The notes: generated by a model not told the origin, from the letters alone. Positions 4,501 to 46,342 are shown, numbered from the stretch's first letter. The stretch: DNA of 64,000 bases from Candidatus Wolfebacteria bacterium RIFCSPLOWO2_01_FULL_47_17b (GCA_001793865.1 MGIS01000023.1:60137-124136), one strand, 5' to 3'. Numbers and translations: made by a program.

Positions 4501-4794
4501 CTCAAGCGCGGATTTTTTCGTCTTGGGGTGGATGTCAACCGGGATTCCTCTTCCATCGTCGGTAACTGAAATCACGTTATCGTCCAGCAATTCGACACGG
4601 ATATTCTTGGCGTATCCCGCCATCGCTTCGTCTATGGAGTTGTCCACCACTTCCCAGACCAGATGGTGCAATCCCTCGGTTCCGGTGGAACCGATATACA
4701 TACCGGGGCGCTTACGAACCGGTTCGAGCCCTTCCAGGACGTATATATCTTTCGCGCTGTAACTGTCTTTTTTTTCCTCTTTTTTATCGGCCAT
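1558..4794 (-). CDS. gyrB: DNA gyrase subunit B interrupted by an in-frame 434-aa intein
   Basis: GyrB ATPase and Toprim motifs; exteins total 644 aa; intein between EGDSAGG and SGKQGRDRR. Confidence 0.92.
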   Translation of the reverse strand: MADKKEEKKDSYSAKDIYVLEGLEPVRKRPGMYIGSTGTEGLHHLVWEVVDNSIDEAMAGYAKNIRVELLDDNVISVTDDGRGIPVDIHPKTKKSALETALCTLHAGGKFGGDSYKVSGGLHGVGVSVVNALSRHLKAEVHKDGGMYVQEYKIGAPQYNVKKIGKTDRTGTKITFQADEEIFSKIEYDRKKIIDHLRQQAFLVKGVKIEIIDARAEVPLYYAFCFEGGLLSFLSYLNEYGDKIQDTPFYVNKEYEGMPVEVAFTYNNDPETQELSFANNIYTMDGGMHLTGFRTALTRALNDFARESGAVKEKEENFTGDDVREGLVAVVSIKLREPQFEGQTKARLGNPPARTAVEAVVSEGLKEFFQKYSGDARVIINKALLAAKARKAAKAAKETVLRKGPFEGLTLPGKLADCSSKDPAESELFIVEGDSAGGCFSGDTKVALADGRHVSFKELVKEHTEGKKNYCYTIDKNGDVAIVLITNPRITKKNSEVLKVVLDNGEEIICTPDHRFMLKNGEYKQAKDLTTSDSLMPLYRQLSRLGKRITIKGYEMVFSPASHRWIFAHLLSDAHNIKSGVYKKGVNEAVHHKDFNKRNNNPDNLVRMPRMEHFFYHTTQLDKTIHREDVKEKCRIIKQSLEFRRRMSEIMSTPDMKKLLSTRAKKQWQDKDYKEYMMEKFLAFYYSHSEYREANKEALNKAQAAYWANEKNRKAQAKRVREFFESHPERKTELSKLSKKQWQDEDLRVWRREETKKQWTPEFREKRKKTYNQTYLNKALGAMHDLYEKKHAISTDAYNELRKALNDKSLIRYDTVCGRFFGGDEKKMKEAAMHFNHKIKEITTLKEKIDVYDIEVPETHNFALASGVFVHNSGKQGRDRRTQAILPLRGKILNVEKARLDKMLANNEIKSLVIALGTAIGADFLVDKIRYHKIIIMTDADVDGAHIRTLLLTLFFRHFRAIIENGYIYIAQPPLYRVQSGKEFKYAFDDEEKEKIAAEFTKAKTQGGISIQRYKGLGEMNPQQLWETTMDPATRLLKRVTIEDAQEADRLFDVLMGEKVAPRKHFIQSRASMVSNLDI
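2182..3483 (-). mobile_element. Intein (aa 438-871 of GyrB precursor) with HNH endonuclease motif and K/E/Q/W-rich internal repeats
   Basis: Starts CFSGDTKVALADG (block A), TPDHRF (block B), ends GVFVHN followed by +1 Ser; HNH-like VHHKDFNKRNNNPDNLVRMPRMEH. Confidence 0.85.
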
Positions 4795-6096: not shown

Positions 6097-6600
6097 CTAT
6101 TTAATTCCTCGCTTGAGTAATATACGTCTTGTATATCCCCAGTCAAGGCCAACTTTTTTTCCAATCTTCCTATAAGAAGCTCCCTTAAGCCTCATTTCTT
6201 CTGCTATTGATATTTTTCTCTCTAAAACTTTCTTTCGATTTTCTTTTTTAGCAAAATACTCATCGAGGGCTTTTATTGTTTTTTGAGCAATACCCTTTTT
6301 AACTACTAAGAATTTATTTACCCCTTTTATAAAGGAATAAACATCTTCTTGACGAGCAATATAATATATCCAGCTATCTTTCCAGTGCTTTTTTCTTTTT
6401 GTCACTTTGGCAACCTTTCCGAAACCGCAAAAATCCGTGATGTCTTTAAGGACATCCTCGTTCGTCTGTGCTATATAAATTCTAAAACCTTTGCCGTTGT
6501 GACAGATTGAACCTTCTCCATCGAAAAAGCCCGCCACATAGTTCCAGCTCATAGTATACTCAGAATACAGTTTTTGTGTGGCATCGTCAATATTGTCCAC
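6097..6600 (-). CDS. Free-standing single-motif LAGLIDADG homing endonuclease with C-terminal HTH
   Basis: WNYVAGFFDGEGSI motif; C-terminal ASYRKIGKKVGLDWGYTRRIL HTH; AT-rich; stop 10 nt from tRNA-His. Confidence 0.8.
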   Translation of the reverse strand: MDNIDDATQKLYSEYTMSWNYVAGFFDGEGSICHNGKGFRIYIAQTNEDVLKDITDFCGFGKVAKVTKRKKHWKDSWIYYIARQEDVYSFIKGVNKFLVVKKGIAQKTIKALDEYFAKKENRKKVLERKISIAEEMRLKGASYRKIGKKVGLDWGYTRRILLKRGIK

Positions 6601-6622: not shown

Positions 6623-6889
6623 TTATACCTTATGCACCTTTGCGTTTTCGTGAGATGCCTTGTTCACTTTAATCGCAACCTCATCCCCCTTTTTTCCTTT
6701 CTTTATCTTTTCGTGATCTATTTCCATTGATTCCACTTGCTGGGTGAATTCGCTCTCACCGTGCACAAATTTAACTTCGTCCCCTACCGAAAGCGGTGCC
6801 GAAAGTTTTACCACCGCCACCATCGCCTTGTCAAAGTAATGGATGACTTTTCCTATTTCCTTATCTTTTTTATTTTTACCAAAAAACAT
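6623..6889 (-). CDS. Hypothetical small protein, beta-barrel resembling EF-Tu domain 2 (start probably MFFGKNKK)
   Basis: GKVIHYFDKAMVAVVKLSAPLSVGDEVKF...GDEVAIKV pattern; weak. Confidence 0.4.
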   Translation of the reverse strand: MFFGKNKKDKEIGKVIHYFDKAMVAVVKLSAPLSVGDEVKFVHGESEFTQQVESMEIDHEKIKKGKKGDEVAIKVNKASHENAKVHKV

Positions 6890-15584: not shown

Positions 15585-17087
15585 TTAAAAATCAAGATTT
15601 TTAAACTTGAACATGAGCCGGAACGATATGTGTGTTGCGTCCACCCGCTGGAAGCTGGAAAGCGGCAGGTCGATCTCCGTAACATACGGCAGTTGCGCGA
15701 GCCGATCCCGAAACGCGCTTACTTCACTTTCCGTTGCCGCAGTCCCCGTTACCGTCACTGGCATATTCCGCGCCTGCATATATATGCGGCTTATGACCAC
15801 GCTTGACCCCGTGCGGTCGAATATATCACGCATAAATGTCCCCCACTTCACCTGCTGATTTTTAATTTCAAGCGCTTTTGTAATGCTTGCGTTAAATATG
15901 CCTGCTTCTTTCGTGTAAAATTCATATTGCGCAAGGATCTGAGGGTCGTTGAAGGACGAAATTACCGTCTCGGCCGTATTCTGCACATGCGTATTGAGAA
16001 ATACGAACACCCCCAAAAATGCGGCGAGTATAATAACCGCCGCCCCCGAAAATATCCCCGTCCATAGCGACAAAAACGACGACGTAAGCATTTGCTGATA
16101 GAGTAATTCGGTTCCTTCAGGCGCGAGGCTGATCTGTGTATCCTGTGAACGCGGAGCGACGCCGCGCAGAGCGGCTCCCAATGCCACGAGCCATGCGCCT
16201 GCCTGTCCGGCAGGCAGACGGACCTGCCGTACCGGCACCGTAAAGTTCTCTTGCACGATCTTTGCAATTTCCTCGGAAGAGTTCTGAAGCGCCATGTACG
16301 CACATTCGAATTGCTCGTGGAATTTGTTTGTAAAAAAATTGCTTATTTGGTGGTATTCCCGTACGATAAAATTCCTCAGATCACCTTCCACGCTGTTCCA
16401 ATCGGAAAATCTTCCAAAATACGCCATTCCTTTCCGTACTATAACAAAACTTATGCCATCCGCCGCGTCCATGACAAGCAGATACGACTTCGCGGAGTCG
16501 AATGTCTTTTCAAGATGCCTGATGGTACGCACGGTCGATGCCGCTTTTTGTTCAACTGCCGTTATGAAAAAGCGTTCATCCGCGAATACTTTTACAAGTT
16601 CGTCAATAACTTTTTTTTCGATGAATGAGGCAAGTATTTCGGCTTCTCCGCTTTCCTCTTCCTGGCCGATACGCTCCCAATCGTAATACATTGTGCTCGA
16701 ATCCGAGGGCGATATGGTCTGCAGGTTGAGCTTCACGGCTTCATCAAACTCCGCTCGTTTGAGCGGCGGGAGCGAAAAACGCTGCGTATACACATTCTCA
16801 TCCGAAATTGAAACTACAACCGGGATGGTTTCTTTCTTCTTGTGAGTGATTTTTTGGCGAAGTTCCTGAATGCTTTTTATAAATTTTTCTCGCTGGAGAA
16901 TCTTTCCATTCTCCACAACCGCCTCTTCCAAACGCACTGATGCGCGTTCCCATGATCCATTTTTTTGATCAATCCGAAGAAACGCGAGCGATTGGTCGCT
17001 TATATCAATCCCCCCGATATGGAGCTGGGGCTGAAGAATATTTAGCCACCTAGCACGTTTCTTTCCTTTTGGCTTTGCTTCTCGCAT
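15585..17087 (-). CDS. pilM: Type IV pilus assembly protein, PilM-PilN(-PilO-like) fusion
   Basis: N-terminal actin-like IGGIDISDQSLAFLRID, central TM, C-terminal PilN/O-like periplasmic part; heads pilus cluster. Confidence 0.7.
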   Translation of the reverse strand: MREAKPKGKKRARWLNILQPQLHIGGIDISDQSLAFLRIDQKNGSWERASVRLEEAVVENGKILQREKFIKSIQELRQKITHKKKETIPVVVSISDENVYTQRFSLPPLKRAEFDEAVKLNLQTISPSDSSTMYYDWERIGQEEESGEAEILASFIEKKVIDELVKVFADERFFITAVEQKAASTVRTIRHLEKTFDSAKSYLLVMDAADGISFVIVRKGMAYFGRFSDWNSVEGDLRNFIVREYHQISNFFTNKFHEQFECAYMALQNSSEEIAKIVQENFTVPVRQVRLPAGQAGAWLVALGAALRGVAPRSQDTQISLAPEGTELLYQQMLTSSFLSLWTGIFSGAAVIILAAFLGVFVFLNTHVQNTAETVISSFNDPQILAQYEFYTKEAGIFNASITKALEIKNQQVKWGTFMRDIFDRTGSSVVISRIYMQARNMPVTVTGTAATESEVSAFRDRLAQLPYVTEIDLPLSSFQRVDATHISFRLMFKFKNLDF

Positions 17088-17104
17088 AATTCTAAGTATA
17101 GCAG

Positions 17105-17172
17105 ATAACCGACGTATACCGTAGACCGAATACCGAATACCGCGATATACGCTATACGGTATTCGATATACG
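17105..17172. repeat. CGTATACC/GAATACC degenerate tandem repeats immediately upstream of pilM
   Basis: gacgtataccgtagaccgaataccgaataccgcgatatacgctatacggtattcgatatacgg. Confidence 0.7.
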
Positions 17173-17173
17173 G

Positions 17174-17674
17174 CTAAATACCGCTTTCTACCACGCCTAT
17201 ATTTGAAATGGATCCGTTCTCATCGTCGATAAGCACCGTGCCGGTGATTTTTACGCGTTTCGGACCTGCCGATCCGGTTGAGGCGATGGTATAGAGCACA
17301 TGGGTTGCGTCGGGCAATGTGCGAGTTATTTGTACCGATACAGATCCTTCCGCTACCGAAATCGTATATGGATTCGGGTCTGGAACAAATGTTTTATCGC
17401 GTGATATGCGCAGCAGGACATCCTGTATGCCCGACCGGGCGGCGTATGTCGCTACATGGGATGCCTTCAGCCCAAGCCCCTGTTCCCCTGACAAAAATGC
17501 CGTTATGAGCCCAACCGCCGTTATTTCAACCAGAATAAAGGCGAGTATAAGAATGGTCATCAACGACACCGCGCCGCGGTTTCGTATTCCGTATTTCGTA
17601 TACCGTATACCGCACAGAAAACCCCGTATCTTTGATACGATATTCGGTATATGGTTCGCGGTATACAGTTTCAT
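17174..17674 (-). CDS. Type IV pilin-like (minor/pseudopilin) protein with long N-terminal extension encoded by GTATAC-type repeats
   Basis: Hydrophobic pilin-like helix VSLMTILILAFILVEITAV; N-terminal HIPNIVSKIRGF...GIRYTKYGIRNRG. Confidence 0.55.
   Translation of the reverse strand: MKLYTANHIPNIVSKIRGFLCGIRYTKYGIRNRGAVSLMTILILAFILVEITAVGLITAFLSGEQGLGLKASHVATYAARSGIQDVLLRISRDKTFVPDPNPYTISVAEGSVSVQITRTLPDATHVLYTIASTGSAGPKRVKITGTVLIDDENGSISNIGVVESGI
17590..17665. repeat. GTATACC / ACGATATTCGGTAT repeats at 5' end of pilin-like gene 17174..17674
   Basis: ttccgtatttcgtataccgtataccgc...gatacgatattcggtatatgg. Confidence 0.7.
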
Positions 17675-19410
17675 GGTGTCCAGTTGATGTGCACATCGTC
17701 AACGGTTGGCGTGCTTGTACCGTTCGGCTCCAAAAATACTTTATATCTAAAATAGCGATAGTTATTCACATTCCATATTTCTGCTTGTTCGTCCGCGGTT
17801 GATGGCGTGAAGTATGTTCCGCTTGTGCCGTCCGATCCGATATAGCTCCACGGTCCCGAGCTGGTATTGGATGCCGCGATCTGGAATTTGACCACCGTGC
17901 CCGCGGGCAGAGTCCCTTGCCAGAGCACGCTGTGTAGCGCACCGCCGCTTGCCGCCTGCGTATCATATGTAGTTGATTCAAGCCAGCCGGATGCGGTGGT
18001 GGTCGCAAGCTCCAGCGACGCTCCAGCGAGGGCAGTCGTGATATTGGACGATGTCGCAAACCCGGTCGGCGATGACGTTGCCGGCCCATCCATGCCGTAC
18101 CCGCTGTCCCAGTCCAATTGCGAAAAGGTTCTGGTGCCGCTTCTTGTTACATACTCTTTGTAAGCAAAGATTTTGTTTTCTGTTGTCGTAGCCATGACGG
18201 TGAGTGACATTGTTGATGGGTCAAGCGTATTGCCGCTTGGCTCTTCCGTGATGTCTCCATTCCCATCACGATACACGTTGCCGATCGTAAAATATCTCGT
18301 ATTCACCCTGCTTTCATAGAGTTGTTCCACTTCATAGCTGGAGAGGGCGCGAGCATACACGCGTACGTCGTCTATAAGGCCGTCAAACAAAGACCACGGC
18401 GCATCATACGATTTTCCGCCTATATCAAGCGGGTATTCAGAGGCATGCAGAACCGCCGGTATATCGGTCGTATCTTCATCCTCAAGCACGCCATTCACAT
18501 ATAAACGGACGAATTGAGATGGTTCATACACGCCAACTGCGTGGGTCCATGTATTCAACGGCGGAGGATTTGTGCCTGTCGTGCCGACATCTAAATCTTG
18601 TCCCGGGCCCGCTGCATAAAATCCAAGACCTCCGTACGTAACTTTTTCTGGCCAAGAACATTCAATCATCATATCGAACTGTTCTTCTCCTCCAGCGAAG
18701 TTGCCCCCTTTTGCCACTATACGCGGGTTGTTGTCTTCTCCATTACATCCTGAACGCTGATAAAACCAGACGGAGACTGTCACGGCACCTGTTATCTGCA
18801 CTTCGGGCTGATTTCCAATGGTTATATAGCTATCGCCATCAAAATCAACACACAACCCCATCATGCATGACGAAGTTGCTTTTATCGGATCTCCTGTGCT
18901 CGTTCCCGTCAGCATATTCCCGGAGCTGTCGTACGCGGTTATGGTCGCCGTTTCATCCAACTTCCAATGTCCCACCAGCCCATACGAGACATCGTCAACA
19001 AGAATACTCTCTTGCCCTCCAATGTAGTACGATGTGGTGGTTCCATTAATAACATAATAGTCACCCGCCGGCAGCGACCAGATTCCCTGCCAGTTGCTTG
19101 CCGCAAGCTGTTCCAGCTTATTCATAATGTCCGCCGCGTGAAATGCCGTCACTTGGGCGATGCGTGACTCGAAGTTGTAGCGCAGGAGCGATACGATTGC
19201 CAACGTCGCGCCGATTAAAAACAAACCCCCCACGGTGATTGATATGAGGACCTCCAGGAGGAGCTGCCCCTTTGCAGATCGTAGACCGCGAAAGAAAGCT
19301 CGTATTTTTAATACGATATTCGGTATACGATATTCGGTATACTGATTAGTAGCTTTCATAGATTCTCTTAATTTCCTCCGCCGACAACGCGCGGTTGTAA
19401 ATACGAACAT
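17671..19410 (-). CDS. Large pilin-like protein: N-terminal type IV pilin helix plus C-terminal LamG/concanavalin-like domain
   Basis: RSAKG|QLLLEVLISI prepilin-like site; LamG-like region DFDGDSYITIGN...LIDDVRVYARALSSYEVEQLY. Confidence 0.65.
   Translation of the reverse strand: MFVFTTARCRRRKLRESMKATNQYTEYRIPNIVLKIRAFFRGLRSAKGQLLLEVLISITVGGLFLIGATLAIVSLLRYNFESRIAQVTAFHAADIMNKLEQLAASNWQGIWSLPAGDYYVINGTTTSYYIGGQESILVDDVSYGLVGHWKLDETATITAYDSSGNMLTGTSTGDPIKATSSCMMGLCVDFDGDSYITIGNQPEVQITGAVTVSVWFYQRSGCNGEDNNPRIVAKGGNFAGGEEQFDMMIECSWPEKVTYGGLGFYAAGPGQDLDVGTTGTNPPPLNTWTHAVGVYEPSQFVRLYVNGVLEDEDTTDIPAVLHASEYPLDIGGKSYDAPWSLFDGLIDDVRVYARALSSYEVEQLYESRVNTRYFTIGNVYRDGNGDITEEPSGNTLDPSTMSLTVMATTTENKIFAYKEYVTRSGTRTFSQLDWDSGYGMDGPATSSPTGFATSSNITTALAGASLELATTTASGWLESTTYDTQAASGGALHSVLWQGTLPAGTVVKFQIAASNTSSGPWSYIGSDGTSGTYFTPSTADEQAEIWNVNNYRYFRYKVFLEPNGTSTPTVDDVHINWTP
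19301..19345. repeat. Tandem 16-mer ACGATATTCGGTATAC x2 at 5' end of gene 17671..19410
   Basis: aatacgatattcggtatacgatattcggtatactg. Confidence 0.75.
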
Positions 19411-20491
19411 CGTCTATATAACCATCAAAGTAATATGATTCTCCAGGGCTATTGCCGATTTGGAAATCGTTTGAGGTGGTTGTCCAATCAATAGTTTCAT
19501 TCGTGCTACTTGCTGATTCCAATCCATCTACAAATATTTGAGTTTTTTTTGTGTCGCCATTATACACCCCCGCAACATAAACCCAATTCCCCGTTTCTAT
19601 TGACGAAGGCGCTTCTAATATCATGTTGTTCGAATCAAGTCTAAATGAAAAGGCCGTGTTGTTCTGGGCAAAACGATAGTCTAAATAAGATTTTCCTGCG
19701 ATATGTTTAAACCCCGACGATACACTGTCGGCGTATATCCAAGCTGTGAGTGTGAAGCTACTTGAATGAATAAACTGATATTGGCTAGGATTTCCAATAA
19801 ATATATAATCATTGCTCCCATCAAAACTCAATGCTCCACCACTTTTCCCCAACGACACCCAATCGGAGCTGCCACTGAAATCAAAGTTGGTCAGCGTACC
19901 TGTATTTCCATTCCCACTCGCATCGTATGCATTCGTTCCCGATCCCTCATCAAATTCCCACATTCCCACCAATCCCGTTTCTTTATATATTTCTATTTTC
20001 CCCAGCGAACTGACTGTTACCATATATACCGAATCGGCTGAACCATCCTTCCCCAGTACGATGGTGTGGGCAGTCGAAGGCAAGCCGGTAAGCGCCGTAA
20101 ATAATATCGTTTTTATATTCCCCGCGACGGGATTTAAAAACTTACTCGCGCTGCTCAAGTTTTTGAGTTCGGCAACGGTTGAAGTGCTGTATGAAGATCC
20201 TTGGAATATTTCAAGGTATCCTCCGTTCGCCTCGCCGCTCAAACGTATGCCCCAATCGACGCCACCGTCCCCAAGCTGCGCCTTGCTCTGCGCAAAATGG
20301 AGCGCCCCAGCGACCATCTGCGCGTCCTGCTTTAATGCCTGTTCCGTGCGAAAATTTAAAATATTCACCGTCGCAACCGCCACCAGAATCGCGACAAGCG
20401 CAATTACGATGACTAGCTCAACAACAGTAAAGGATCGTATACCGTATACCGTATACCGTATACCGCGTGCAAATTGTGTACCGCTATTCAT
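19346..20491 (-). CDS. Pilin-like protein with LamG/concanavalin-like domain
   Basis: FTVVELVIVIALVAILVAVA pilin helix; LamG-like LSFDGSNDYIFIGN...YIDDVRIYNRALSAEEIKRIY. Confidence 0.65.
   Translation of the reverse strand: MNSGTQFARGIRYTVYGIRSFTVVELVIVIALVAILVAVATVNILNFRTEQALKQDAQMVAGALHFAQSKAQLGDGGVDWGIRLSGEANGGYLEIFQGSSYSTSTVAELKNLSSASKFLNPVAGNIKTILFTALTGLPSTAHTIVLGKDGSADSVYMVTVSSLGKIEIYKETGLVGMWEFDEGSGTNAYDASGNGNTGTLTNFDFSGSSDWVSLGKSGGALSFDGSNDYIFIGNPSQYQFIHSSSFTLTAWIYADSVSSGFKHIAGKSYLDYRFAQNNTAFSFRLDSNNMILEAPSSIETGNWVYVAGVYNGDTKKTQIFVDGLESASSTNETIDWTTTSNDFQIGNSPGESYYFDGYIDDVRIYNRALSAEEIKRIYESY
20437..20464. repeat. Perfect tandem heptamer GTATACC x4 (codes GIRYTVYGIR in the annotated N-terminus)
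   Basis: cgtataccgtataccgtataccgtataccgcg. Confidence 0.85.
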
Positions 20492-20855
20492 GGTAAATTC
20501 TTTTTAGCCCGCTTAAGACCTTTTTTGCCTCAATGCTCTGCCGATAAAGAGAATTAAAATCATTCTCTAATAGGTATCCTATGTCTTGTGCAATAAAAAA
20601 TTGACTTTGTAGTTCTGTTAGAGAACCTGTAGCGATTGTATAAAACTGATTCTTATCTTTTGCGCTCCCGCGTGAAAAACCTTCTGCTATGTTTGAAGTT
20701 ATTGATATTGCTGCTCTTCTCATTTGGCTTGTTAACCCAAATAGTTCTTCTTTTGGAAGTTTCTTTGTGATTTCATATACTAAAAGAACAAGCTTGTGAG
20801 CTTCTTTCCATGCGCGTAAATCTGTGAAGTTTTTAATCTTTTTGCTTTGTTCCAT
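20484..20855 (-). CDS. Four-helix-bundle protein (23S rRNA-intervening-sequence-protein family)
   Basis: FTDLRAWKEAHKLVLLVYEITKKLPKEE...SITSNIAEGFSRGS...GSLTELQSQ signature. Confidence 0.8.
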   Translation of the reverse strand: MEQSKKIKNFTDLRAWKEAHKLVLLVYEITKKLPKEELFGLTSQMRRAAISITSNIAEGFSRGSAKDKNQFYTIATGSLTELQSQFFIAQDIGYLLENDFNSLYRQSIEAKKVLSGLKRIYHE

Positions 20856-20888
20856 ACGGAATACGATATACGGTCTTCGGTATACGGT
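20856..20888. repeat. GGTATACG/GAATACG repeats between pilC stop and four-helix-bundle gene start
   Basis: catacggaatacgatatacggtcttcggtatacgg. Confidence 0.7.
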
Positions 20889-22097
20889 TTAGAACGCACT
20901 CGTAAGTTGGTACACCGGCACAATGACCGCGAGCGCGATCGTTCCGATCACTACTCCTATCAGAAGAAGCATAATCGGTTCGATAAAGGTGACCAGTGTT
21001 TTGACCGACATTTCGACTTCTTTCGCATAAAAATCGGCAAGCGTACTCAAGATGCTTTCCAGATGCCCCGATTTTTCCGATATCGCGATGAGGTTTGCCA
21101 CTATTTTGGGAAATACTGTCTCCCGCCGAAATGCTTCCCCTACGGTGAGCCCTTTCGCGATGCCTTCCTGCGCTATCCTTCGTATGGAGTTCCGCAAGTC
21201 CGGCATACCAACCGAGTCCGCGGTCACCTCAAGCGATTCTATAATAGGAAGGCCCGACGACAAAAGAGATGAAAATGTCGCCGCAAAACGCTGAACCGCT
21301 ATATTTCGTATGACTTTTTTTATAACGGGTATGTGGAGCGCGATGTCGTATATCAGCTTTCTGCCCACCATGGTTTTGATGAAAAAGATAAGCGATCCGA
21401 TGGTAATCCCGAAAAAGAGCGTCAAAAGCAACGCGAGGTGATCGCCTATAAAAAGCCCGACCGTAAACACGATCTTCGAAAATCCGGGCGGTTCGAATCC
21501 GCCGGTTGTGAATACGCCTGCGATTTTCGGGAGCGAATAGCTCACCAGCAGTATGAGGATAATGATGGACGCAATAAAAAGAATAACTGGATACGTAAGG
21601 GCTGATTTTATCTTTGAGCGGAGGTCTTTGTCTTTTTCGAGCGATACGCTCACTTCATCAAACACCGTTTCCAGTTTTCCCGATACCTCTCCCGCCTTGA
21701 TCAGATTTACAAATACCGGTGAGAATGACTTGGGATACTTCGCAAACGTTGAATAAAACGGCTTCCCCTTTTCCAGGTTTGCCCGCACTTCCATGAGAAG
21801 ATCTTTGACGGCACGCTTTTCAAAGTCATCCACCAGGATGTTTATCGCCTTGAAGAGATCGGTGCCGACTTTCATCATAAGCGATAGATACTTTGTTATG
21901 AAAATCTTGTCCTGCAGCGTGACTTTTCCTTGGAATAGCTTCGAGAAATCCAGCGAAGTGTTGCGTATTTCCTGCAGAGATACGGGACGCAGTTTTTGCG
22001 CGCTGATTTTAACAAGCGCGTCTGTGGAGTTTGTCGCCTGGAGTATACCTTCAACTATTTTTTGCGATGCATCTAGGGCTTTGTATCGAAATTTCAT
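20889..22097 (-). CDS. pilC: Type IV pilus / type II secretion platform protein PilC (GspF family)
   Basis: Two GspF repeats, 3 TM segments, 402 aa. Confidence 0.88.
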   Translation of the reverse strand: MKFRYKALDASQKIVEGILQATNSTDALVKISAQKLRPVSLQEIRNTSLDFSKLFQGKVTLQDKIFITKYLSLMMKVGTDLFKAINILVDDFEKRAVKDLLMEVRANLEKGKPFYSTFAKYPKSFSPVFVNLIKAGEVSGKLETVFDEVSVSLEKDKDLRSKIKSALTYPVILFIASIIILILLVSYSLPKIAGVFTTGGFEPPGFSKIVFTVGLFIGDHLALLLTLFFGITIGSLIFFIKTMVGRKLIYDIALHIPVIKKVIRNIAVQRFAATFSSLLSSGLPIIESLEVTADSVGMPDLRNSIRRIAQEGIAKGLTVGEAFRRETVFPKIVANLIAISEKSGHLESILSTLADFYAKEVEMSVKTLVTFIEPIMLLLIGVVIGTIALAVIVPVYQLTSAF

Positions 22098-22229
22098 CCC
22101 GTTAGAAATCTGTCACTTACTAGTAATGTATATAGTGTAGCAAAATCACGTTTTATTTTCATTTCTTGTTTAGCTTGAGCAGAAAATTTTTAATAAAATT
22201 TTCTGCCGATGATTTCTAACGGGATTCAT
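22093..22229. repeat. Inverted-repeat cassette copy A: TIRs ATCCCGTTAGAAATC / GATTTCTAACGGGAT; internal AT-rich hairpin; left TIR abuts pilC ATG
   Basis: 15-bp perfect TIRs; internal gcagaaaattt-ttaataa-aattttctgc hairpin; fills the pilB-pilC gap exactly. Confidence 0.8.
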
Positions 22230-22233
22230 ATGT

Positions 22234-23961
22234 TTATTCGCGTATTACTCGGAGCACTTCCTCAATCGTCGTCACGCCGACCGCCGCCTTCTGCAATCCG
22301 TCTTCAAACATCGTTTTCATCCCATTCTTTTTTGCGATTTCATATACGTGGTCCATGGTGAAATCCGGTGATGCAATAGTTCTGCGCATATCATCGTTAA
22401 TCTCCATAATTTCAAATATGCCCAACCGGCCCCGGTAGCCGATGCCGTGGCATGCCTTGCATCCTTTACCGCGGTACAGGCTTTTGGGAAGTTCCGCATT
22501 TGGCAATTTTAGCTCTTCAAACTGGTTTTTTAGCTCCTTTTTGAATTCCTCGGATAGCTCATACGATTCGATGCAATCAATGCAGATTTTTCGCACCAGA
22601 CGCTGGGCGACTGCTACGTTCAACACCGCTGCGGCCAAAAATGGCGGGATATCCATATCAAGCATGCGCGCGACTGTTGAAGGAGCATCGTTGGTATGCA
22701 GAGACGAAAGCACGATATGCCCCGTGAGTGCCGACTGTACCGCAATATCAGCCGTTTCGTTGTCGCGGATTTCACCGACCATGATGATGTTTGGATCCTG
22801 ACGAAGTATAGAACGCAGCCCCGATGCAAAGGTAATGCCCGCAAGCGGATTTACTTGGATCTGGTTGATGTACCTGATGTTATATTCGATCGGGTCTTCG
22901 ATCGTGACGATATTTACCTCTGGCCGGTTGAGAAGATTGAGAATGGAATAGAGCGTTGTCGTCTTGCCGGATCCGGTCGGCCCTGTCACGAGCACCATGC
23001 CGTAGGTTTTTTTGATATTTTCTTCTACAAGATCCGCCATATTCTCGGAAAATCCCAGTTCGGCAAGCGAAAGCGGCCGCTGAGCGGCGGAAAGAAGACG
23101 CATAACGATCTTTTCTCCGTAGAGCGTCGGAATAATCGAGATACGCACATCTATAACCGATCCGCCCACTTGATAGCGGAATCTGCCGTCTTGCGGTTTT
23201 TGATGTTCGTCCACCTTCAGCGCTCCGAGCAGTTTTACGCGCGCCACGACCGGTGCGTGGATCTGGCGCGGGATGGTAATAATCTCGTGTAAAATACCAT
23301 CAATACGGAATCGTACAAGCACCGACTGCTCCATTGCCTCAATATGCACATCAGATGCGCCCAAATACGTCGCGTACGAAAGAAGGTTATTCACCAGATC
23401 AACGATCGAGACTTCCTTTGCGGCGTCCTCGGCTTTATCGGCATGGTACCGAAGTGATTTTTGAATGCTTGTTTCGAGTACTTTTTTAAAATCTTCCGTT
23501 TGCGCATGGCTGTAGAGCGAAAATCCTGATGCAAGATCCTCGCTGGATGCCAAAAAAATGCGGAGTTTTGCGTTGAGTTTTTTTTCAAGAAACTCGATCG
23601 TCTGCAGATCGCTGGGATCTTCCATCGCTATGTCGATCGTGCCGTCCTGCTCTTTGGCGAATGCCACCGCTTTCTTTTCCTGCGCGAGCTTCTCGTCCAC
23701 AAGCAAAAGCACCGACTGATCGATGCCGCGTGAACGGAGCGACGCCCGCTCCACTCCGAAATACCGCGCAATGAAGTTATATAAAAAATCCGCCGCGACA
23801 AATCCTTTGGAAATGAGGAGTTCCAGCACGTCCTGGTTCATGCGTCCTGCCTCATCGGAAATCTCCCGGAATTGCTCATCGGTAATGAGTCCTTGTTCTT
23901 TAAGCCAGTCTTTTAGTTTGTCGTGAGAAATTTGTATCATGGACGCAATAACAGCCACCAA
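22234..23961 (-). CDS. pilB: Type IV pilus assembly ATPase PilB (GspE family)
   Basis: N-terminal GspE_N, Walker A GPTGSGKTTT, Asp box, His box, zinc CxxC. Confidence 0.9.
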   Translation of the reverse strand: MVAVIASMIQISHDKLKDWLKEQGLITDEQFREISDEAGRMNQDVLELLISKGFVAADFLYNFIARYFGVERASLRSRGIDQSVLLLVDEKLAQEKKAVAFAKEQDGTIDIAMEDPSDLQTIEFLEKKLNAKLRIFLASSEDLASGFSLYSHAQTEDFKKVLETSIQKSLRYHADKAEDAAKEVSIVDLVNNLLSYATYLGASDVHIEAMEQSVLVRFRIDGILHEIITIPRQIHAPVVARVKLLGALKVDEHQKPQDGRFRYQVGGSVIDVRISIIPTLYGEKIVMRLLSAAQRPLSLAELGFSENMADLVEENIKKTYGMVLVTGPTGSGKTTTLYSILNLLNRPEVNIVTIEDPIEYNIRYINQIQVNPLAGITFASGLRSILRQDPNIIMVGEIRDNETADIAVQSALTGHIVLSSLHTNDAPSTVARMLDMDIPPFLAAAVLNVAVAQRLVRKICIDCIESYELSEEFKKELKNQFEELKLPNAELPKSLYRGKGCKACHGIGYRGRLGIFEIMEINDDMRRTIASPDFTMDHVYEIAKKNGMKTMFEDGLQKAAVGVTTIEEVLRVIRE

Positions 23962-24515
23962 CTACTTTGGCTAAAAAATAGATATACTGTCAGTATAACA
24001 CACAGAGCGGTGGGAAACCACATATAATACGGCGATACGCGATATTCTTTTCCCTTTCGGAGAGTTTGCACGGCTGTGGTCAGCAGGAAAAGCATAAAAA
24101 ACACAGGCACGAATAGCACCACCCCCGGAAAACCCGAGAGAAGTATCGCGCTCCCCGCGATCCATTCTTCATGTTCGCGCAAAAGCGCTCCCTCTTTCTT
24201 CTTGTTGTATATTCTCAGCCCATATACAGCAAGAAGCGCGAACCCGAACGACATAATGTGTGAACTCCATATTCGGAAAAACACGTATTGTATGAAATAT
24301 GAGACCGATGTTTTGGGCGGAAGCAGATATGCGGTAAGCGGCGAATTCGCCCAGCCGCTATACTGCAGATACGTGAGGACGGAAAGAAAGAGGAAAACAA
24401 ATATGGCGTTCAACCAAAAGAGGTCCAATCTTCGTCTGGGAAAGTTGAACCTCTGTGATGCGAAGTTTGTCGCAAACAATACGATCGAAAAAATCAGTAT
24501 CCAATCATGAAACAT
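23937..24515 (-). CDS. Hypothetical polytopic membrane protein in pilus cluster
   Basis: 5-6 predicted TM helices; lacks the conserved Asp motifs of A24 peptidases. Confidence 0.45.
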   Translation of the reverse strand: MFHDWILIFSIVLFATNFASQRFNFPRRRLDLFWLNAIFVFLFLSVLTYLQYSGWANSPLTAYLLPPKTSVSYFIQYVFFRIWSSHIMSFGFALLAVYGLRIYNKKKEGALLREHEEWIAGSAILLSGFPGVVLFVPVFFMLFLLTTAVQTLRKGKEYRVSPYYMWFPTALCVILTVYLFFSQSSWWLLLRP

Positions 24516-24524
24516 GACATACGC

Positions 24525-25082
24525 TTAGAGGGTTAGATCGGTCCCGGCTTCGTATGCCTGAGCTTCATCTCCTCCGTCAGTGCTTTCCTTGTCGCTGCCC
24601 CCTCCGTTTATATATTTCGTGCTTTCAAGAAACGCGTTTATCTCAAATGTAAGAGCGGTGCTTCCTCCTGCATACGCATAAAAGTATGTTGTACCATGGC
24701 TTGGATCAATAGGAAGTACGCTGAGTGGAGAACCACCTGATATCGCGTCAAAATTCACCGGTATCCATCCGGTACCGTCCGTTACGCGAGTCGTGCTTCC
24801 TGTCGCTGAATAGGATGCCGTGAATAATCCCCCACAGTTTGTGGTTGTGGTTGTTGCTCCGGTATACATATAGCAACTACTTCCAACCGACGGATCGGTT
24901 ACGTCAACCAGATACAATGATATGGCATTCTTGACCGAGTCAAGATCCGAGAATCTTTGGCTATCGCGCGCTTGGCGCAGAAGCTCTGCCGGATTCAGAA
25001 TGACGACGACCGCTGCGGTTAATATTGCCAAGATGCCGATAACAATCAGCAGCTCAACGAGTGTAAACCCTGTCTTTTTCAT
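24525..25082 (-). CDS. Type IV major pilin
   Basis: Class III signal MKKTG|FTLVELLIVIGILAILTAAV, Thr/Gly/Ser-rich variable domain. Confidence 0.85.
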   Translation of the reverse strand: MKKTGFTLVELLIVIGILAILTAAVVVILNPAELLRQARDSQRFSDLDSVKNAISLYLVDVTDPSVGSSCYMYTGATTTTTNCGGLFTASYSATGSTTRVTDGTGWIPVNFDAISGGSPLSVLPIDPSHGTTYFYAYAGGSTALTFEINAFLESTKYINGGGSDKESTDGGDEAQAYEAGTDLTL

Positions 25083-25137
25083 ATGGTTATTTTTTATATG
25101 TTTAGTATAGCACACTTTTTAAAAATGATGTGTATAA

Positions 25138-25524
25138 CTATTGACGTTTTGTAAGAAACTCCAGTACGTTTTTCACCAGATCGTCGATGGATGTTTTTGC
25201 TTTTACAAAATACTCTACCGCGCCAAGTTCCTGGCCTTTTTGCATATCTTCCGGCTGGCCGAGGTTCGATATGATAATAATAGGCGCGTCCCGCAGCTGC
25301 GGATCCTGCCGGATAGCCTCCATGACCTCAAAGCCTGATTTTTTCGGAAGTATGAGATCAAGCAGAATGACATCGGGACTCGCGTCTTTAAGGATAGTCA
25401 CGGCTTCCTGTCCGTCCTTTGCGTACATAACCTCAAGCCCTTCCTTTGAAAATCTGTTCTTTAAAAGCGACGAAAGGAACGGGTCATCTTCAATGAGGAG
25501 AATTTTCTTTTTTGTATCTTCCAT
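25138..25524 (-). CDS. Single-domain response regulator (CheY-like, PilH/PilG-type); start at MEDTKKKILLIEDD
   Basis: DD...D...T...K receiver signature; upstream part of listed ORF overlaps 16S 3' end. Confidence 0.75.
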   Translation of the reverse strand: MEDTKKKILLIEDDPFLSSLLKNRFSKEGLEVMYAKDGQEAVTILKDASPDVILLDLILPKKSGFEVMEAIRQDPQLRDAPIIIISNLGQPEDMQKGQELGAVEYFVKAKTSIDDLVKNVLEFLTKRQ

Positions 25525-25616
25525 AGGTGTTTTTAAGCATACCACAAGAAGTGAGTGGTGAGTAGTGGGTCGTGTGTATAACTGGCTTGAAAACTTTTTT
25601 AGTTGTCCCAGCCGAG

Positions 25617-27222
<1,606 letters not shown>

Positions 27223-27346
27223 AAATTAACGATGTCAAAAATTCCAAGCCTTCGACCTAAGTCTTGACTTGAAACTTCTGGCATCTTGCTATCGGGACAA
27301 CTAAAAAAATCTTCAAATTAACACATTTGTGGATGCCCCCAATCTT

Positions 27347-27709: not shown

Positions 27710-27991
27710 ATGAAAAAAGACACCCATCCAGCCTACTATCCGGACGCGAAGGTTTCCTGCGCGTGCGGGAATACATTCACGATCGGCTCCACCAAAAAAG
27801 AAATCCGGGTGGAAATCTGCTACAACTGCCATCCGTTTTATACCGGCAAAGACAAGCTTATAGATACGGCCGGTCGCGTAGACAAGTTCAAAGCGCGCCG
27901 CGAAAAGGCGGCAAAGGCCACTGTCCGCACAAAGACCGCGAAGCGTGCCGCCAAAGCTGCGAAGAAAGTGAAGAAACCGGTTAAAAAATAG
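27710..27991 (+). CDS. rpmE: 50S ribosomal protein L31 with Lys/Ala-rich C-terminal extension
   Basis: [10 protein letters not shown]...CACGNTF...[11 protein letters not shown] zinc-ribbon L31 signature. Confidence 0.85.
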
Positions 27992-27994
27992 TGT

Positions 27995-28057
27995 TTAGGG
28001 ATTAGGTTTTAGGGACTAGGGTAGAATCTAACCCCTTTTCACTAACCACTAATCCCT
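27995..28057. repeat. TTAGGGATTAG / CTAATCCCT palindromic leader element, copy a (upstream of prfA)
   Basis: tttagggattagg...cactaaccactaatccct; related to 43287 and 46270. Confidence 0.7.
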
Positions 28058-28069
28058 ATTTTATTAAGT

Positions 28070-31838: not shown

Positions 31839-32281
31839 ATATGAAGTCCGTATAACAGTATAGCAAGGGCGCCAGTATACAAAAACTCAAGATAAAAGTA
31901 CACCGAAGTGAAGAATGTTCCTTCAAAGAATATAAGCCAAAACAGAATGTGAAAGCATGCCAGCATCAGAAGGCCCATAAAAAATGACTTCTTCAAAACA
32001 AGGAACCGTACAACGGCAAACGCGGCAACGCTTGCTGCTGCGGTAAAAAATAATTCGGCTGTCACGCTCGGCGCATACTTCAGCCACACCAGCAGAAGCA
32101 GCGTGTACAGCGCGTACGCGGTAATCTCGCTTAAAAAAAATGCTCCTACGACCGCCGCCGCGAGCGCGTAATTTACCGACACCGGCAGTAGTGGAAAAAC
32201 GGTGTAGGATAAAGCGACAATAATAAGAAATATGATTGCCGTCTGCAGAAGTTGGGATTGAAGAAAGTGTCTGTCTTTCAT
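31814..32281 (-). CDS. mreD: Rod shape-determining protein MreD-like membrane protein
   Basis: 5 TM helices, position between mreC and mrdA. Confidence 0.55.
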   Translation of the reverse strand: MKDRHFLQSQLLQTAIIFLIIVALSYTVFPLLPVSVNYALAAAVVGAFFLSEITAYALYTLLLLVWLKYAPSVTAELFFTAAASVAAFAVVRFLVLKKSFFMGLLMLACFHILFWLIFFEGTFFTSVYFYLEFLYTGALAILLYGLHIWAQKISH

Positions 32282-32357
32282 ATGGCAATTTCGAAACTTC
32301 AGTCATTCATCCGCCAGCTGGCGGATTGAATCGAAATTAGAAATTCGAAATTAGAAA
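32282..32357. repeat. Palindromic element: AATTTCGAAACTTCAGTCATTCA-TCCGCCAGCTGGCGGA-TTGAATCGAAATT plus GAAATTA tandem repeats, between mreC and mreD
   Basis: Near-identical to 37747-37840. Confidence 0.85.
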
Positions 32358-33071
32358 TTAGTTTGTTAATACGAACACCGTTCTCAAGGCGTTCAAATTA
32401 TATGGCACCTCTATCGTGGCTTGAAAGAACGCGCCCGACGCGTCTTCGCTTACGCTTTTTACGTAACCGACACTCAGCCCGTACGGCATATCGCGCGACG
32501 CGGTGACGATCCTGTCTCCCGACGCGATTTGCTTGGACTTGTCTATGAGCGTGAGCCGCGGCGCAATACCTCCCTGCAACAGCGCGTCGGTCTCCTGCAT
32601 ACCTACGCGAACCGGCAGCGCAAACGACGTGTCATAAAGCGTTATAATTTCGCTTCGATTCTCCGATACTTTCTCAACAATACCCACAAAAACAGTGTCC
32701 GAAATAAGGACCGCTTTGCCCTTTGTAACTCCTTCTTCCGCTCCGCTTCCGATGTATATGCGATTTTTCGTATTGAACGGATACAGCGAGTATACCTTTG
32801 CGGATATAACGTCATTGCGAGCGAGCGTAGCGAGCGCGGCAATCTCTCCCTCTTCGTCATTCTGAGCAAAGCGAAGAATCTCATTATTTTTATCTTCAAT
32901 TTGTAACCTGAGACTCTGATTCTCCTCCAGGAGCTGCGGTATCCGCCACACGGCCGAAATATAGTCCCCTATGGAAAGATTTTTTTTAAAATAAAAAGGC
33001 GTTGCCACAAGCACCGCCGCAAGCACCAGAATTATGACATATAAAACCGTGTTGTTCTTTCGTCCGATCAT
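32358..33071 (-). CDS. mreC: Rod shape-determining protein MreC
   Basis: N-terminal TM, coiled coil, two beta-barrel MreC domains. Confidence 0.8.
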   Translation of the reverse strand: MIGRKNNTVLYVIILVLAAVLVATPFYFKKNLSIGDYISAVWRIPQLLEENQSLRLQIEDKNNEILRFAQNDEEGEIAALATLARNDVISAKVYSLYPFNTKNRIYIGSGAEEGVTKGKAVLISDTVFVGIVEKVSENRSEIITLYDTSFALPVRVGMQETDALLQGGIAPRLTLIDKSKQIASGDRIVTASRDMPYGLSVGYVKSVSEDASGAFFQATIEVPYNLNALRTVFVLTN

Positions 33072-37699: not shown

Positions 37700-37856
37700 G
37701 GTTCTTAAATTTTGAATTTCGAGTTCCGAATTTCGAATCAAATCCTAATGTATTAATTTCGAAACTTCAGTCATTCATCCGCCAGCTGGCGGATCGCGGA
37801 TTGAATCGAAATTCAAAATTAGAAATTAGAAATTATTTTATATCCGCTGGTACATA
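37700..37856. repeat. Second copy of the ~60-bp palindromic element around TCCGCCAGCTGGCGGA (core 37778-37793) with 7-nt duplication and GAAATTA/GAATTTCGA tandem repeats; rseP-frr spacer
   Basis: aatttcgaaacttcagtcattcatccgccagctggcggatcgcggattgaatcgaaatt. Confidence 0.85.
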
Positions 37857-43277: not shown

Positions 43278-43286
43278 GGGAAAGGT

Positions 43287-43350
43287 TTTAGTGGTTAGTG
43301 GTTAGGGATTAGTGTTTTATTAACAACTAACACCTGATCCCTAATCCCTC
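43287..43350. repeat. TTAGGGATTAG / CTAATCCCT palindromic leader element, copy b
   Basis: gtggttagtggttagggattagtg...aactaacacctgatccctaatccct. Confidence 0.7.
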
Positions 43351-43352
43351 TT

Positions 43353-43778
43353 CTATCTTTTGCTCCACTGTGGTGCTCGGCGCGCTTTCTTAAGTCCGTA
43401 TTTCTTGCGTTCCACCATGCGCGCGTCGCGAGTCAGGTAGCCGAATTTTTTGAGCTTTTTACGAAGATCTGGCTGGAGCAGAACAAGCGCCCGCGCAATA
43501 CCGTGCCGGATAGCTTCCGCCTGCGCGTTAAACCCGCCTCCCTGCACATGCGTTGATATCTCGAACGAATCAAGTAAATCCGTCTTTTCAAGCGGGCTTT
43601 GTACCTTTTTTTGCAGTGTGGCAAGCGGGAAATACTCCTGCATCTTTTTTTCATTCACGACGATTCCTCCTTTGCTTGATGCCTTTTTTGCATCGGAGAG
43701 GCGTACGCGAGCTACCGCCGTTTTTCGCCGCCCTACCGTCTCTGTATATTTTTCTTTTTTTACTGTTGTTTTTGTCAT
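43353..43778 (-). CDS. rpsI: 30S ribosomal protein S9
   Basis: C-terminal GYLTRDARMVERKKYGLKKARRAPQWSKR signature. Confidence 0.9.
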   Translation of the reverse strand: MTKTTVKKEKYTETVGRRKTAVARVRLSDAKKASSKGGIVVNEKKMQEYFPLATLQKKVQSPLEKTDLLDSFEISTHVQGGGFNAQAEAIRHGIARALVLLQPDLRKKLKKFGYLTRDARMVERKKYGLKKARRAPQWSKR

Positions 43779-46268: not shown

Positions 46269-46269
46269 A

Positions 46270-46336
46270 GTGGTTAGTGATTAGGGTTTAGGGATTAGTA
46301 TTTCCTGACAACTAACACCTAATCCCTGATCCCTGC
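46270..46336. repeat. TTAGGGATTAG / CTAATCCCT palindromic leader element, copy c (immediately upstream of fusA ATG)
   Basis: agtggttagtgattagggtttagggattagta...aactaacacctaatccctgatccct. Confidence 0.7.
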
Positions 46337-46342
46337 TTTTGC

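Follow-up and report, generated by a model that had tools for sequence, protein, structure and literature searches.

The described systems closest to the repeats analyzed here are the intervening sequences (IVSs) of bacterial 23S rRNA and the tandem heptameric repeats of bacterial genomes. The 23S IVS of Coxiella burnetii is 428-444 nt long and has a 28-bp terminal stem around the S23p open reading frame (ORF); two to three tandem GACAGAT units, whose number varies between strains, stand right before the S23p ATG, and the 5' cut by RNase III falls at the first of these units (PMC4990558). Such 23S IVSs are regarded as selfish and horizontally moved, and variants without the ORF exist (PMC4990558). 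Heptameric repeats occur in bacteria in excess over other unit sizes, are variable between close relatives, and are mostly intergenic; both this excess and the short tandemly repeated repetitive (STRR) sequences of cyanobacteria are documented and have been left unexplained (PMC4692102). Four-helix-bundle (4HB) genes between cas genes, and inside rRNA insertions of the candidate phyla radiation (CPR), have been noted in the literature with no mention of arrays, and a literature search for heptamer arrays around 4HB genes or for palindromic repeats in CPR returned only the Coxiella IVS. Here we analyzed a stretch of 64,000 nucleotides (hereafter the window; positions are counted from its first letter) from Candidatus Wolfebacteria bacterium RIFCSPLOWO2_01_FULL_47_17b (GCA_001793865.1, MGIS01000023.1:60137-124136), in which a pilus gene cluster contains a 4HB gene and five blocks of GTATAC-based tandem repeats. 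The blocks, lettered A (lowest coordinate) to E (highest), probably belong as arms to a single family of small palindromic heptamer elements, in which E, the 4HB gene, and D make up a gene-bearing copy, here called the cassette, and C, B, and A are gene-less copies.

Like the IVSs with an S23p ORF from Leptospira and Coxiella, the cassette belongs to a size range of ~430-450 nt and has inverted termini (stems of ~28-37 bp) around a PF05635 ORF. Unlike the 23S IVSs, which reside in helix 25 or 45 of the 23S rRNA, it lies in a protein-coding operon between pilC and a pilin gene, each of its arms is an array of heptamers in fixed register with the start or the stop codon, its 3' arm is probably read as protein, and gene-less copies are found at neighboring junctions. 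On the one hand, tandem 7-nt units, sometimes in inverted pairs, are also a feature of the STRR sequences and of the GGGAATC and GGGGA(C/T)T repeats (Xanthomonas, Nostoc). On the other hand, those reports made no tie to a gene family, whereas the arrays described here bracket PF05635 genes, and the unit sequences are unrelated: the blocks are built from GGTATAC, GGTATTC, and similar units that are not STRR consensus units, and the host is a CPR/Paceibacterota-like bacterium, not a cyanobacterium. Dispersed extragenic palindromes at the junctions of operon genes are also known as repetitive extragenic palindromic (REP) sequences and bacterial interspersed mosaic elements (BIMEs). These are single REP hairpins accompanied by REP-associated tyrosine transposases (RAYTs); the arms of the cassette are instead arrays, and a search prompted by one related locus (L018) found no Y1/RAYT transposase homologue in the window or in 80 related loci. 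Rickettsia palindromic elements, as well as enterobacterial repetitive intergenic consensus (ERIC) and repeat unit (RU) elements, the last of them described in PMC2759123, are small palindromes that insert in transcribed regions, sometimes in frame within ORFs, to which they add peptide; they have a fixed consensus of 100-170 bp, are not tandem heptamers, and carry no 4HB gene. Finally, a tract that is not a multiple of three between the start and the mature coding region of a surface structure is shared with the contingency simple sequence repeat (SSR) loci of Haemophilus and Neisseria, from which our locus differs in having ~4 units, no length polymorphism among six assemblies, and counterparts before housekeeping genes elsewhere.

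The cassette and its gene-less copies in the pilus cluster

Every gene from that of a CheY-like receiver protein (25138-25524) through leuS lies on the minus strand, hereafter the gene strand. An initial annotation of this DNA had reported five GTATAC blocks that mark gene 5' ends, and the blocks were borne out, as was their presence at the 5' end of each gene in the series running from the 4HB gene to pilM. The heptamer GGTATAC was observed 25 times in the window against an expectation of 3.6 +/- 2.1 (none of the shuffles reached 25), with 11 of these matches falling in 17114-20885. Likewise, the 14-mer ACGATATTCGGTAT had ten matches with up to two mismatches, compared with 0.6 expected, and all ten are within the five blocks. 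Tandem Repeats Finder detected arrays of period 7 or 14 at 17116-17172, 17580-17612, 19311-19342, 20436-20465 (4.3 perfect CGTATAC units), and 20854-20888. All five blocks are period-7 arrays, with at least three tandem 7-nt units and an excess of lag 7 over other unit sizes; the start of block B was refined to 17580, and block C, whose second arm is decayed, was found to extend to 19271. One copy is present at each of four junctions, namely pilC with the 4HB gene and pilin-like 3, pilin-like 3 with 2, pilin-like 2 with 1, and pilin-like 1 with pilM. Rfam, searched over the whole window at gathering scores and over 16900-21100 at E <= 1, gave no match in the repeat region. Across ~80 kb of the genome (the window and 16.5 kb beyond it) GTATAC arrays are confined to the interval from pilC to pilM, neither further GTATAC arrays nor further 4HB genes were found, and the sole 4HB gene is the one flanked by these arrays. 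The description of the repeats as cluster-specific is thus true of the GTATAC flavor only; period-7 arrays in general, of which the window has 12, are a property of the genome.

Two points were absent from the initial annotation: the heptamer arrays of other sequences at other junctions of this genome, described further below, and the inverted orientation of D and E around the 4HB gene. These two blocks form inverted repeats of 37 nt (20436-20472 and 20850-20886) that are 81% complementary and 377 nt apart, and in the minimum free energy (MFE) fold of 20425-20900 (-111.4 kcal/mol, z -4.1) they pair with each other, enclosing the ORF. Block E begins one base past the pilC stop codon and its last unit (..CGTATTCCGTATG) provides the ATG of the 4HB gene, while block D sits 18 nt past the stop codon of that gene. 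The encoded protein matched PF05635 (5.7e-38, 129.8 bits), the family profile TIGR02436 (118 bits, cutoff 24), and a relative of solved structure, XCC0516 (PDB 2GSC, 1.8e-22). The gene-bearing copy has the structure by which S23p-type IVSs are defined, including a total size in their range of ~0.4-0.75 kb, but not their location in rRNA: its neighbors are pilC and a pilin-like gene, it is not inserted in an rRNA helix, and the sole rRNA of the window is a 16S (25672-27228, Rfam scan). Therefore, we call the cassette IVS-like and not a member of the IVSs. A reading of the Avd-like gene as part of a diversity-generating retroelement (DGR) was rejected, as no reverse transcriptase was present within +/-10 kb, no repeat resembling a template repeat and variable repeat (TR/VR) pair was found, and the protein scored 23 bits against the Avd equivalog model, for which the cutoff is 80.

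Once the ORF is taken out, the cassette arms E and D are collinear with blocks C, B, and A. The copies follow a common plan consisting of a 5' arm (..GTATACCG..ATCGTAT), a center, and a 3' arm (GCGGTATACGG..), and the position of the ORF in the cassette corresponds to a mini-hairpin in B (CGTATCAAAGATACG) and C (CGTATTAAAAATACG) and to almost nothing in A. Block C starts directly after the stop codon of pilin-like 3 with a 5'-type arm (ATACCGAATATCGT twice), followed by its mini-hairpin and by a 3' arm that is mostly lost, and coincides with residues 6-30 of the pilin-like 2 translation. Block B, located in the 5' portion of the pilin-like 1 ORF, is stop-free in all three sense frames. Block A occupies the spacer from the pilin-like 1 stop codon to the start of pilM/N. 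Both A (-31.8 kcal/mol, z -4.4) and B (-28.7 kcal/mol, z -3.9) are self-complementary and form hairpins on the sense strand. The cluster holds four copies with inverted termini, one of them bearing the gene.

Table 1. Coordinates of the repeat blocks, neighboring genes, and other array families (positions in the window)
Feature	Position	Strand	Basis or remark
Whole IVS-like cassette	20436..20888	-	arm + 4HB ORF + arm, 453 nt; MFE fold
Block E, 5' arm	20856..20888	-	Tandem Repeats Finder, inverted-repeat search
4HB gene, 123 aa, PF05635 23S_rRNA_IVP / TIGR02436	20484..20855	-	profile matches; cassette loop
Block D, 3' arm	20436..20472	-	complementary to E; within leader-coding part of pilin-like 3
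Block C, gene-less copy	19271..19345	-	77 nt repeat, 74% identical to B
Block B, gene-less copy	17580..17666	-	5' arm, mini-hairpin, 3' arm
Block A, gene-less copy	17105..17173	-	tight hairpin fold
pilC (T2SSF), upstream neighbor of cassette	20889..22097	-	homology
Pilin-like 3, 381 aa, Laminin_G_3	19346..20491	-	ORF, domain match, start-codon scan
Pilin-like 2, 562 aa, Laminin_G_3	17671..19359	-	ORF, domain match, start-codon scan
Pilin-like 1, 166 aa, no Pfam match	17174..17674	-	ORF, start-codon scan
pilM/pilN fusion, downstream of block A	15585..17087	-	domain matches
ATTTATA family	13004/13088		array search
TTAGTGG/TTAGGGA family	27989, 43288, 46268		array search
GAAATTA family	32333, 37708/37806		array search
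CTCACTA family	59306-59372		array search

Heptamer arrays beside 4HB genes in other genomes

The 4HB protein has thousands of relatives with 60-75% identity across CPR lineages, and in the first five loci inspected heptamer arrays were seen hugging the gene. A total of 80 metagenomic loci were fetched via the family alignment, of which 76 were usable, all from one subfamily with 57-67% identity, and these were searched with a home-made array detector under identical settings for all lags. Within 80 nt of the gene, 54 loci have lag-7 arrays upstream of the start codon, 57 have them downstream of the stop codon, 70 have them on at least one side, and 41 on both; for all other lags from 4 to 12, a single near array (lag 9) was detected. 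The density of arrays was 8.4/kb near the 4HB gene versus 0.26/kb elsewhere. Furthermore, the arrays are phase-locked to the ATG and stop codon of the gene: upstream units consist of G[A/T]AT plus three variable bases and end in ..GAATTATG or ..GTATG, and the first downstream unit is fused to the stop codon (TAATTC.., TGATTC.., TAATAC..). The two arms co-vary at their variable bases, since duplexes averaged -20.8 kcal/mol when cognate and -15.4 kcal/mol when formed by non-cognate arms that share a core (p = 2.5e-10). Inverted array pairs that lack the gene but have cassette cores are common in these loci. Arrays lying more than 130 nt from the gene match the local cassette in their core (23:1 and 2:7; Fisher p = 6e-5) and, on the evidence of these cores, mirror blocks A to C.

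The downstream neighbor of the cassette was co-directional in a ratio of 53:1 and the upstream neighbor in a ratio of 43:9. The gap from the upstream stop codon to the 4HB ATG has a median of 33 nt and so holds little beyond the arm. The genes that host the cassettes are diverse (~55 distinct contexts) and include porA, atpD, topA, rpsG, pheT, ksgA, and pilin-like genes. Directly behind the cassette, porA, encoding the alpha subunit of pyruvate:ferredoxin oxidoreductase (PFOR), was found in at least eight loci (L019, L021, L022, L027, L030, L032, L033, and L096) and a pilin-like gene in at least seven (L020, L023, L029, L045, L062, L068, and L073). Loci L038 and L048 have 429 nt in common at 88% identity, made up of the ORF, 24 nt of 5' arm, and 14 nt of 3' arm, within available flanks (471 and 1709 nt) that are unrelated; therefore, arms and ORF moved together. 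Loci L049 and L057 are distinguished by a single 7-nt unit, and their homology ends 24 nt past the stop codon. Judging from these comparisons, 4HB cassettes appear to be widespread in CPR just upstream of a co-directional host gene, with arms and ORF traveling together.

Read-through of the 3' arm, with the ATG of the downstream gene overlapping the end of the 4HB gene, was observed in 11 of the ~55 contexts. The leader of the pilin-like protein of L020 reads MKFNTRYKIHNTRYKYSRSARKA/FTLMELL (here and below, a slash marks the predicted cleavage site), and further cases occur in L045, L062, and L068. Leaders of this kind on pilin-like proteins of the metagenomic loci also include MKKFNTEYRMQNTEYSHSCSERKG/FTLMELI and MFDTKYKIQNTKYNLG/FTIIELV, and PFOR alpha subunits carry N-termini such as MKKNTKYQIPNTKY.. 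from the same type of read-through. Among individual loci, L071 (1351-2781) and L094 (3001-4032) each have a 4HB ORF without a stop codon that continues in frame into the downstream gene, for products of 476 and 343 aa. The cassettes of L023 and L045 both precede a pilin-like gene; in the former, a ~70-nt GC-rich palindromic segment (~950-1020) is nested in the 3' heptamer arm, and this segment is not present in the 86% identical L045. The contig of L052 opens with at least 15 perfect TACTTAA units (1-108), the longest array of the CPR set.

Beyond CPR, a protein search of a plasmid collection identified 4HB genes mainly in Nostoc, Calothrix, Anabaena, and related cyanobacteria. The non-CPR sample was made up of 14 plasmid loci (L101-L114), 12 of them cyanobacterial (from Calothrix, Trichormus, Aulosira, Pseudanabaena, Picosynechococcus, Nostoc, Anabaena, Stanieria, and Geminocystis), along with Riemerella and Gemmatirosa. 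In 12 of these 14 loci (10 of the 12 cyanobacterial ones, one Bacteroidota, and one Gemmatimonadota), the ends of the 4HB gene have lag-7 arrays at a distance of up to 130 nt, and 22 arrays were counted in ~4.8 kb near the gene versus 12 in ~41 kb elsewhere. In the Trichormus plasmid, ..GAATTCAGGAGTCAGAATAAATG lies upstream of the 4HB gene and TGACTCCTGA.. downstream; in Anabaena sp. 90, ~35 ACAGGTG/ACAGGGA units lie upstream and (CTGTCAC)x4 downstream; and the arms of Riemerella are AAGGTTT versus AAACCTT. These sequences hint at a link between cyanobacterial STRR-type heptamers and PF05635 genes.

Pilin leaders and the origin of the repeats

Orthologous pilus clusters were compared in three loci of Paceibacterota/Patescibacteria (L007, L008, and L010) with PilC proteins that are 54-70% identical. 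None of the three has a 4HB gene after pilC and none has GTATAC arrays. The minor pilins encoded beside pilC have short leaders of 10-14 residues without repeat-type peptide, namely MNQFFKQKKS/FTLIEL in L007, MHLFLKQRSS/FTLIEL in L008, and MIKIKKYFFQIDKA/FTLIEL in L010; therefore, the long leaders are lineage-specific and not conserved. The initial annotation had raised the idea of a conserved long pilin leader and had proposed this very comparison, in which neither the GTATAC repeats nor the leader peptide turned out to be conserved. The pilC-pilin spacer of L008 holds a perfect 36-nt palindrome, ATCCATTCGCCAATTCGCGCGAATTGGCGAATGGAT (6770-6806), alongside AGTAACN and TTTTCAA heptamers. Between the major pilin gene and pilB, the window (23937-24515), L008 (2824-3408), and L009 (688-1284) encode a conserved membrane protein of ~192 aa with no Pfam match.

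The repeat peptides quoted in the initial annotation are correct translations of minus-strand ORFs. The further suggestion that translation of the pilins may in fact begin past the repeats is not supported for pilin-like 3 and 2 and is possible only for pilin-like 1. The single canonical start of pilin-like 3 is ATG 20491, inside the final codons of the 4HB gene, and that of pilin-like 2 is ATG 19359, overlapping the end of pilin-like 3. In both genes no ATG, GTG, or TTG was found between the repeat and the predicted cleavage site, and the next canonical start past the repeat falls within the hydrophobic helix. In pilin-like 1, the ATG at 17674 overlaps the pilin-like 2 stop codon as ATGA, and translation of the repeat is uncertain because of alternative starts at GTG 17569, TTG 17563, and ATG 17560. 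By the logic of the start codons, the repeats are probably translated as leaders of 20 and 31 residues in pilin-like 3 and 2, predicted to read MNSGTQFARGIRYTVYGIRS/FTVVEL and MKATNQYTEYRIPNIVLKIRAFFRGLRSAKG/QLLLEV, which would be cut at S/FTVVE and G/QLLLE if prepilin processing applies. Except for the length of their leaders, these two proteins would fit the class III prepilin signal, which combines a short basic leader, a small residue at -1, and a hydrophobic helix with Glu at +5; pilin-like 1 has Glu at +16, and the N_methyl Pfam model matches only the major pilin. No prepilin peptidase was recognizable in the pilus cluster.

All six frames of blocks D and E are free of stop codons and the GTATAC blocks as a whole are nearly stop-free, unlike the other array families of the window, which are full of stop codons. 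The 7-nt unit, which is not divisible by three, stands in the 5' coding region of pilin-like 3. The resemblance between the peptides stems from that between the DNA sequences rather than from any motif conserved in the protein. An origin of the repeats at the nucleic-acid level, in line with the DNA/RNA-level role preferred in the initial annotation, is the better reading. The odd leader peptides are probably tolerated by-products of the repeat and not functional motifs, and if the repeats are translated these pilins would tolerate such insertions unusually well.

According to the element family that we favor, copies would spread locally by DNA-level copying and unit numbers would change by slippage. 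By analogy with true IVSs, the transcribed arms may pair into a ~30-bp stem cleavable by RNase III, and such a cut would separate or decapitate the downstream cistrons, lowering or uncoupling the expression of the minor pilins. On uncut transcripts, translation would run by coupling from the ATG at the end of the upstream gene through the stop-free 3' arm, and the resulting leaders of 20-31 residues would be removed by prepilin processing. Several observations weigh against this origin. No recombinase, reverse transcriptase, or Y1 transposase linked to the cassette was found. Neither ongoing slippage or movement nor tract-length polymorphism was seen among six assemblies, whose consensus sequences are 100% identical over 15001-26000; these assemblies derive from several samples, and because at least three of the contigs carrying the region are from Rifle aquifer metagenomes, the organism was present in that aquifer. 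The "empty" junctions of L007 and L008 already carry heptamer arrays of other sequences, so that arrays may pre-exist, with gene-less copies being the older state. Arm pairing in the metagenomic loci was alike for the sense and antisense strands (-22.7 versus -22.9 kcal/mol, and 136 versus 140 G-U pairs), and pairing that is equal on both strands therefore does not assign selection to RNA rather than DNA. The arrays of two non-CPR loci (L104 and L113) are direct, not inverted. Lastly, a cut by RNase III would separate the coding regions of pilin-like 3 and 2 from the start codons that serve them, and a rare ATA start at 20440 would yield a leader of only three residues (MRS) for pilin-like 3.

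A different explanation is that the palindromes persist by serving the host as RNA hairpins between cistrons, as RNase III sites, stabilizers, or attenuators that set a low stoichiometry of minor pilins and assembly proteins versus pilin, PilB, and PilC, with the 4HB gene being incidental. This would fit much of the data, including the strong stability of the hairpins (z -3.2 to -7.7) and their position exactly at cistron junctions, the U-rich tracts that follow the mini-hairpins of B and C (one of them terminator-like, 17640-17624), the RNase III cleavage of such arms in Coxiella, and the 4HB-porA arrangement kept in several lineages. However, it leaves the association with 4HB ORFs in 70 of 76 loci unexplained, and one and the same cassette in the unrelated contexts of L038 and L048, arm pairing without strand asymmetry, and sequences that are not conserved at orthologous junctions also make it unlikely. 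The chances are smaller that the arrays are binding sites that allow the pentameric 4HB protein to package or regulate its own nucleic acid, in which case A to C would be extra sites that place the neighboring pilus genes under its control. Arrays do accompany PF05635 genes in CPR, Cyanobacteriota, Bacteroidota, and Gemmatimonadota, plus Pseudomonadota (the Coxiella 23S IVS), the family is related to Avd, a nucleic-acid-binding protein of DGRs, and nearby gene-less arrays have the core of the cassette. Against this, the units differ widely beside proteins that are 60-70% identical, and the other array families of the window have no 4HB gene nearby.

Phase variation, in which the gain or loss of 7-nt units between the ATG and the mature part would switch minor pilins on and off, is suggested by the 4.3 perfect GGTATAC units that separate ATG 20491 from the mature part of pilin-like 3, by a unit size that is not a multiple of three, and by one-unit differences both between related loci (L049 and L057) and between Coxiella strains. 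We regard it as very unlikely, given that copy number is the same in the six assemblies from several samples, that all tracts are short and, with the exception of D, imperfect, and that arrays of this type also precede porA, atpD, topA, and rpsG, where switching would harm. The operators or promoters for a pilus-specific regulator invoked in the initial annotation have still poorer prospects. Repeats at the 5' ends of genes in succession, together with a gene for a receiver domain in the cluster, would suit this role, but a scan of 16900-21100 revealed no sigma-70-like site on the gene strand, and the CheY-like protein is a bare receiver (a Response_reg domain only, with no DNA-binding domain). 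Moreover, the motif is not present at the orthologous clusters (L007, L008, and L010), blocks B to D are within ORFs that overlap the preceding gene, and this architecture is also seen around 4HB genes in dozens of contexts unrelated to pili. The least credible of these explanations is a conserved and functional long leader peptide on the pilins, despite the related peptides ahead of three hydrophobic helices and the similar N/T/Y/K-rich pilin leaders in other CPR loci: close orthologues have short and unrelated leaders, leaders elsewhere vary with the local heptamer, the units are non-coding in A and E, and peptide similarity follows the DNA repeat (B and C, 74% identity).

Extending the favored element family to the wider dataset leads to a more tentative, joint proposal. 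Mobile palindromic cassettes, rRNA IVSs included, may constitute a widespread, so far undescribed class that carries PF05635 genes as cargo and has tandem heptamer arrays, locked to start and stop codons, as its termini. These cassettes might insert just upstream of host genes, to which they would donate starts and N-terminal extensions (here those of pilins), the pentameric 4HB protein might act on the arrays, and cassettes together with gene-less derivatives might explain much of the heptamer excess, including STRR. On the favored reading itself, a pilus-specific view of the locus gives way to a general one, that of an IVS-type element in protein-coding operons with arms copied to neighboring junctions and read as protein. 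It also ties PF05635/TIGR02436, a very abundant family of unknown function, to a precise nucleic-acid signature in at least five phyla, and suggests a testable source for the bacterial heptamer excess, including the cyanobacterial STRR first described decades ago. The rule for annotation is that a long and unusual N-terminus with many Y, T, I, R, N, and K residues behind a 4HB gene is to be treated as repeat-encoded.

Other arrays and selfish elements of the window

The 12 lag-7 arrays of the window compare with 0.1 in shuffles, and other lags gave essentially none except for the harmonic 14. The families other than GTATAC (Table 1) are mostly hairpins that fill the spacers of co-directional genes. 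These hairpins, at 12995-13125, 27985-28062, 32280-32365, 37700-37840, 43283-43354, 46263-46340, and 59300-59376, have fold z-scores of -3.6 to -7.7, and two of them (H11 and H12) have the right arm CAACTAACACCTRATCCCTRATCCCT in common. An exact 37-nt repeat, TTCGAAACTTCAGTCATTCATCCGCCAGCTGGCGGAT, with a GC-rich palindrome inside, is present at 32290-32326 and 37758-37794, in each case adjoining GAAATTA arrays. The leuS ORF contains an in-frame GAAT-core repeat (13649-13690) that encodes ..NIMRMPQIHNANAANENS.. and is ~76% identical over 42 nt to the spacer that immediately precedes leuS (15539-15580). It appears that a repeat element sits within a variable loop of this housekeeping gene. The ORF of the CheY-like protein was listed as 163 aa, and its receiver domain begins at MEDTKK (25524). 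An ACTCACC-type heptamer array (25550-25578), located a short distance downstream of the 16S gene, overlaps the extra N-terminus (25525-25672). Selfish elements of other kinds were also recognized, namely an intein (PF14890) in GyrB (1558-4794), a LAGLIDADG_3 ORF adjoining a tRNA (6097-6600), and a group I intron (Rfam, 77 bits) among tRNA genes (8464-8703); other selfish elements are therefore dense in the window.

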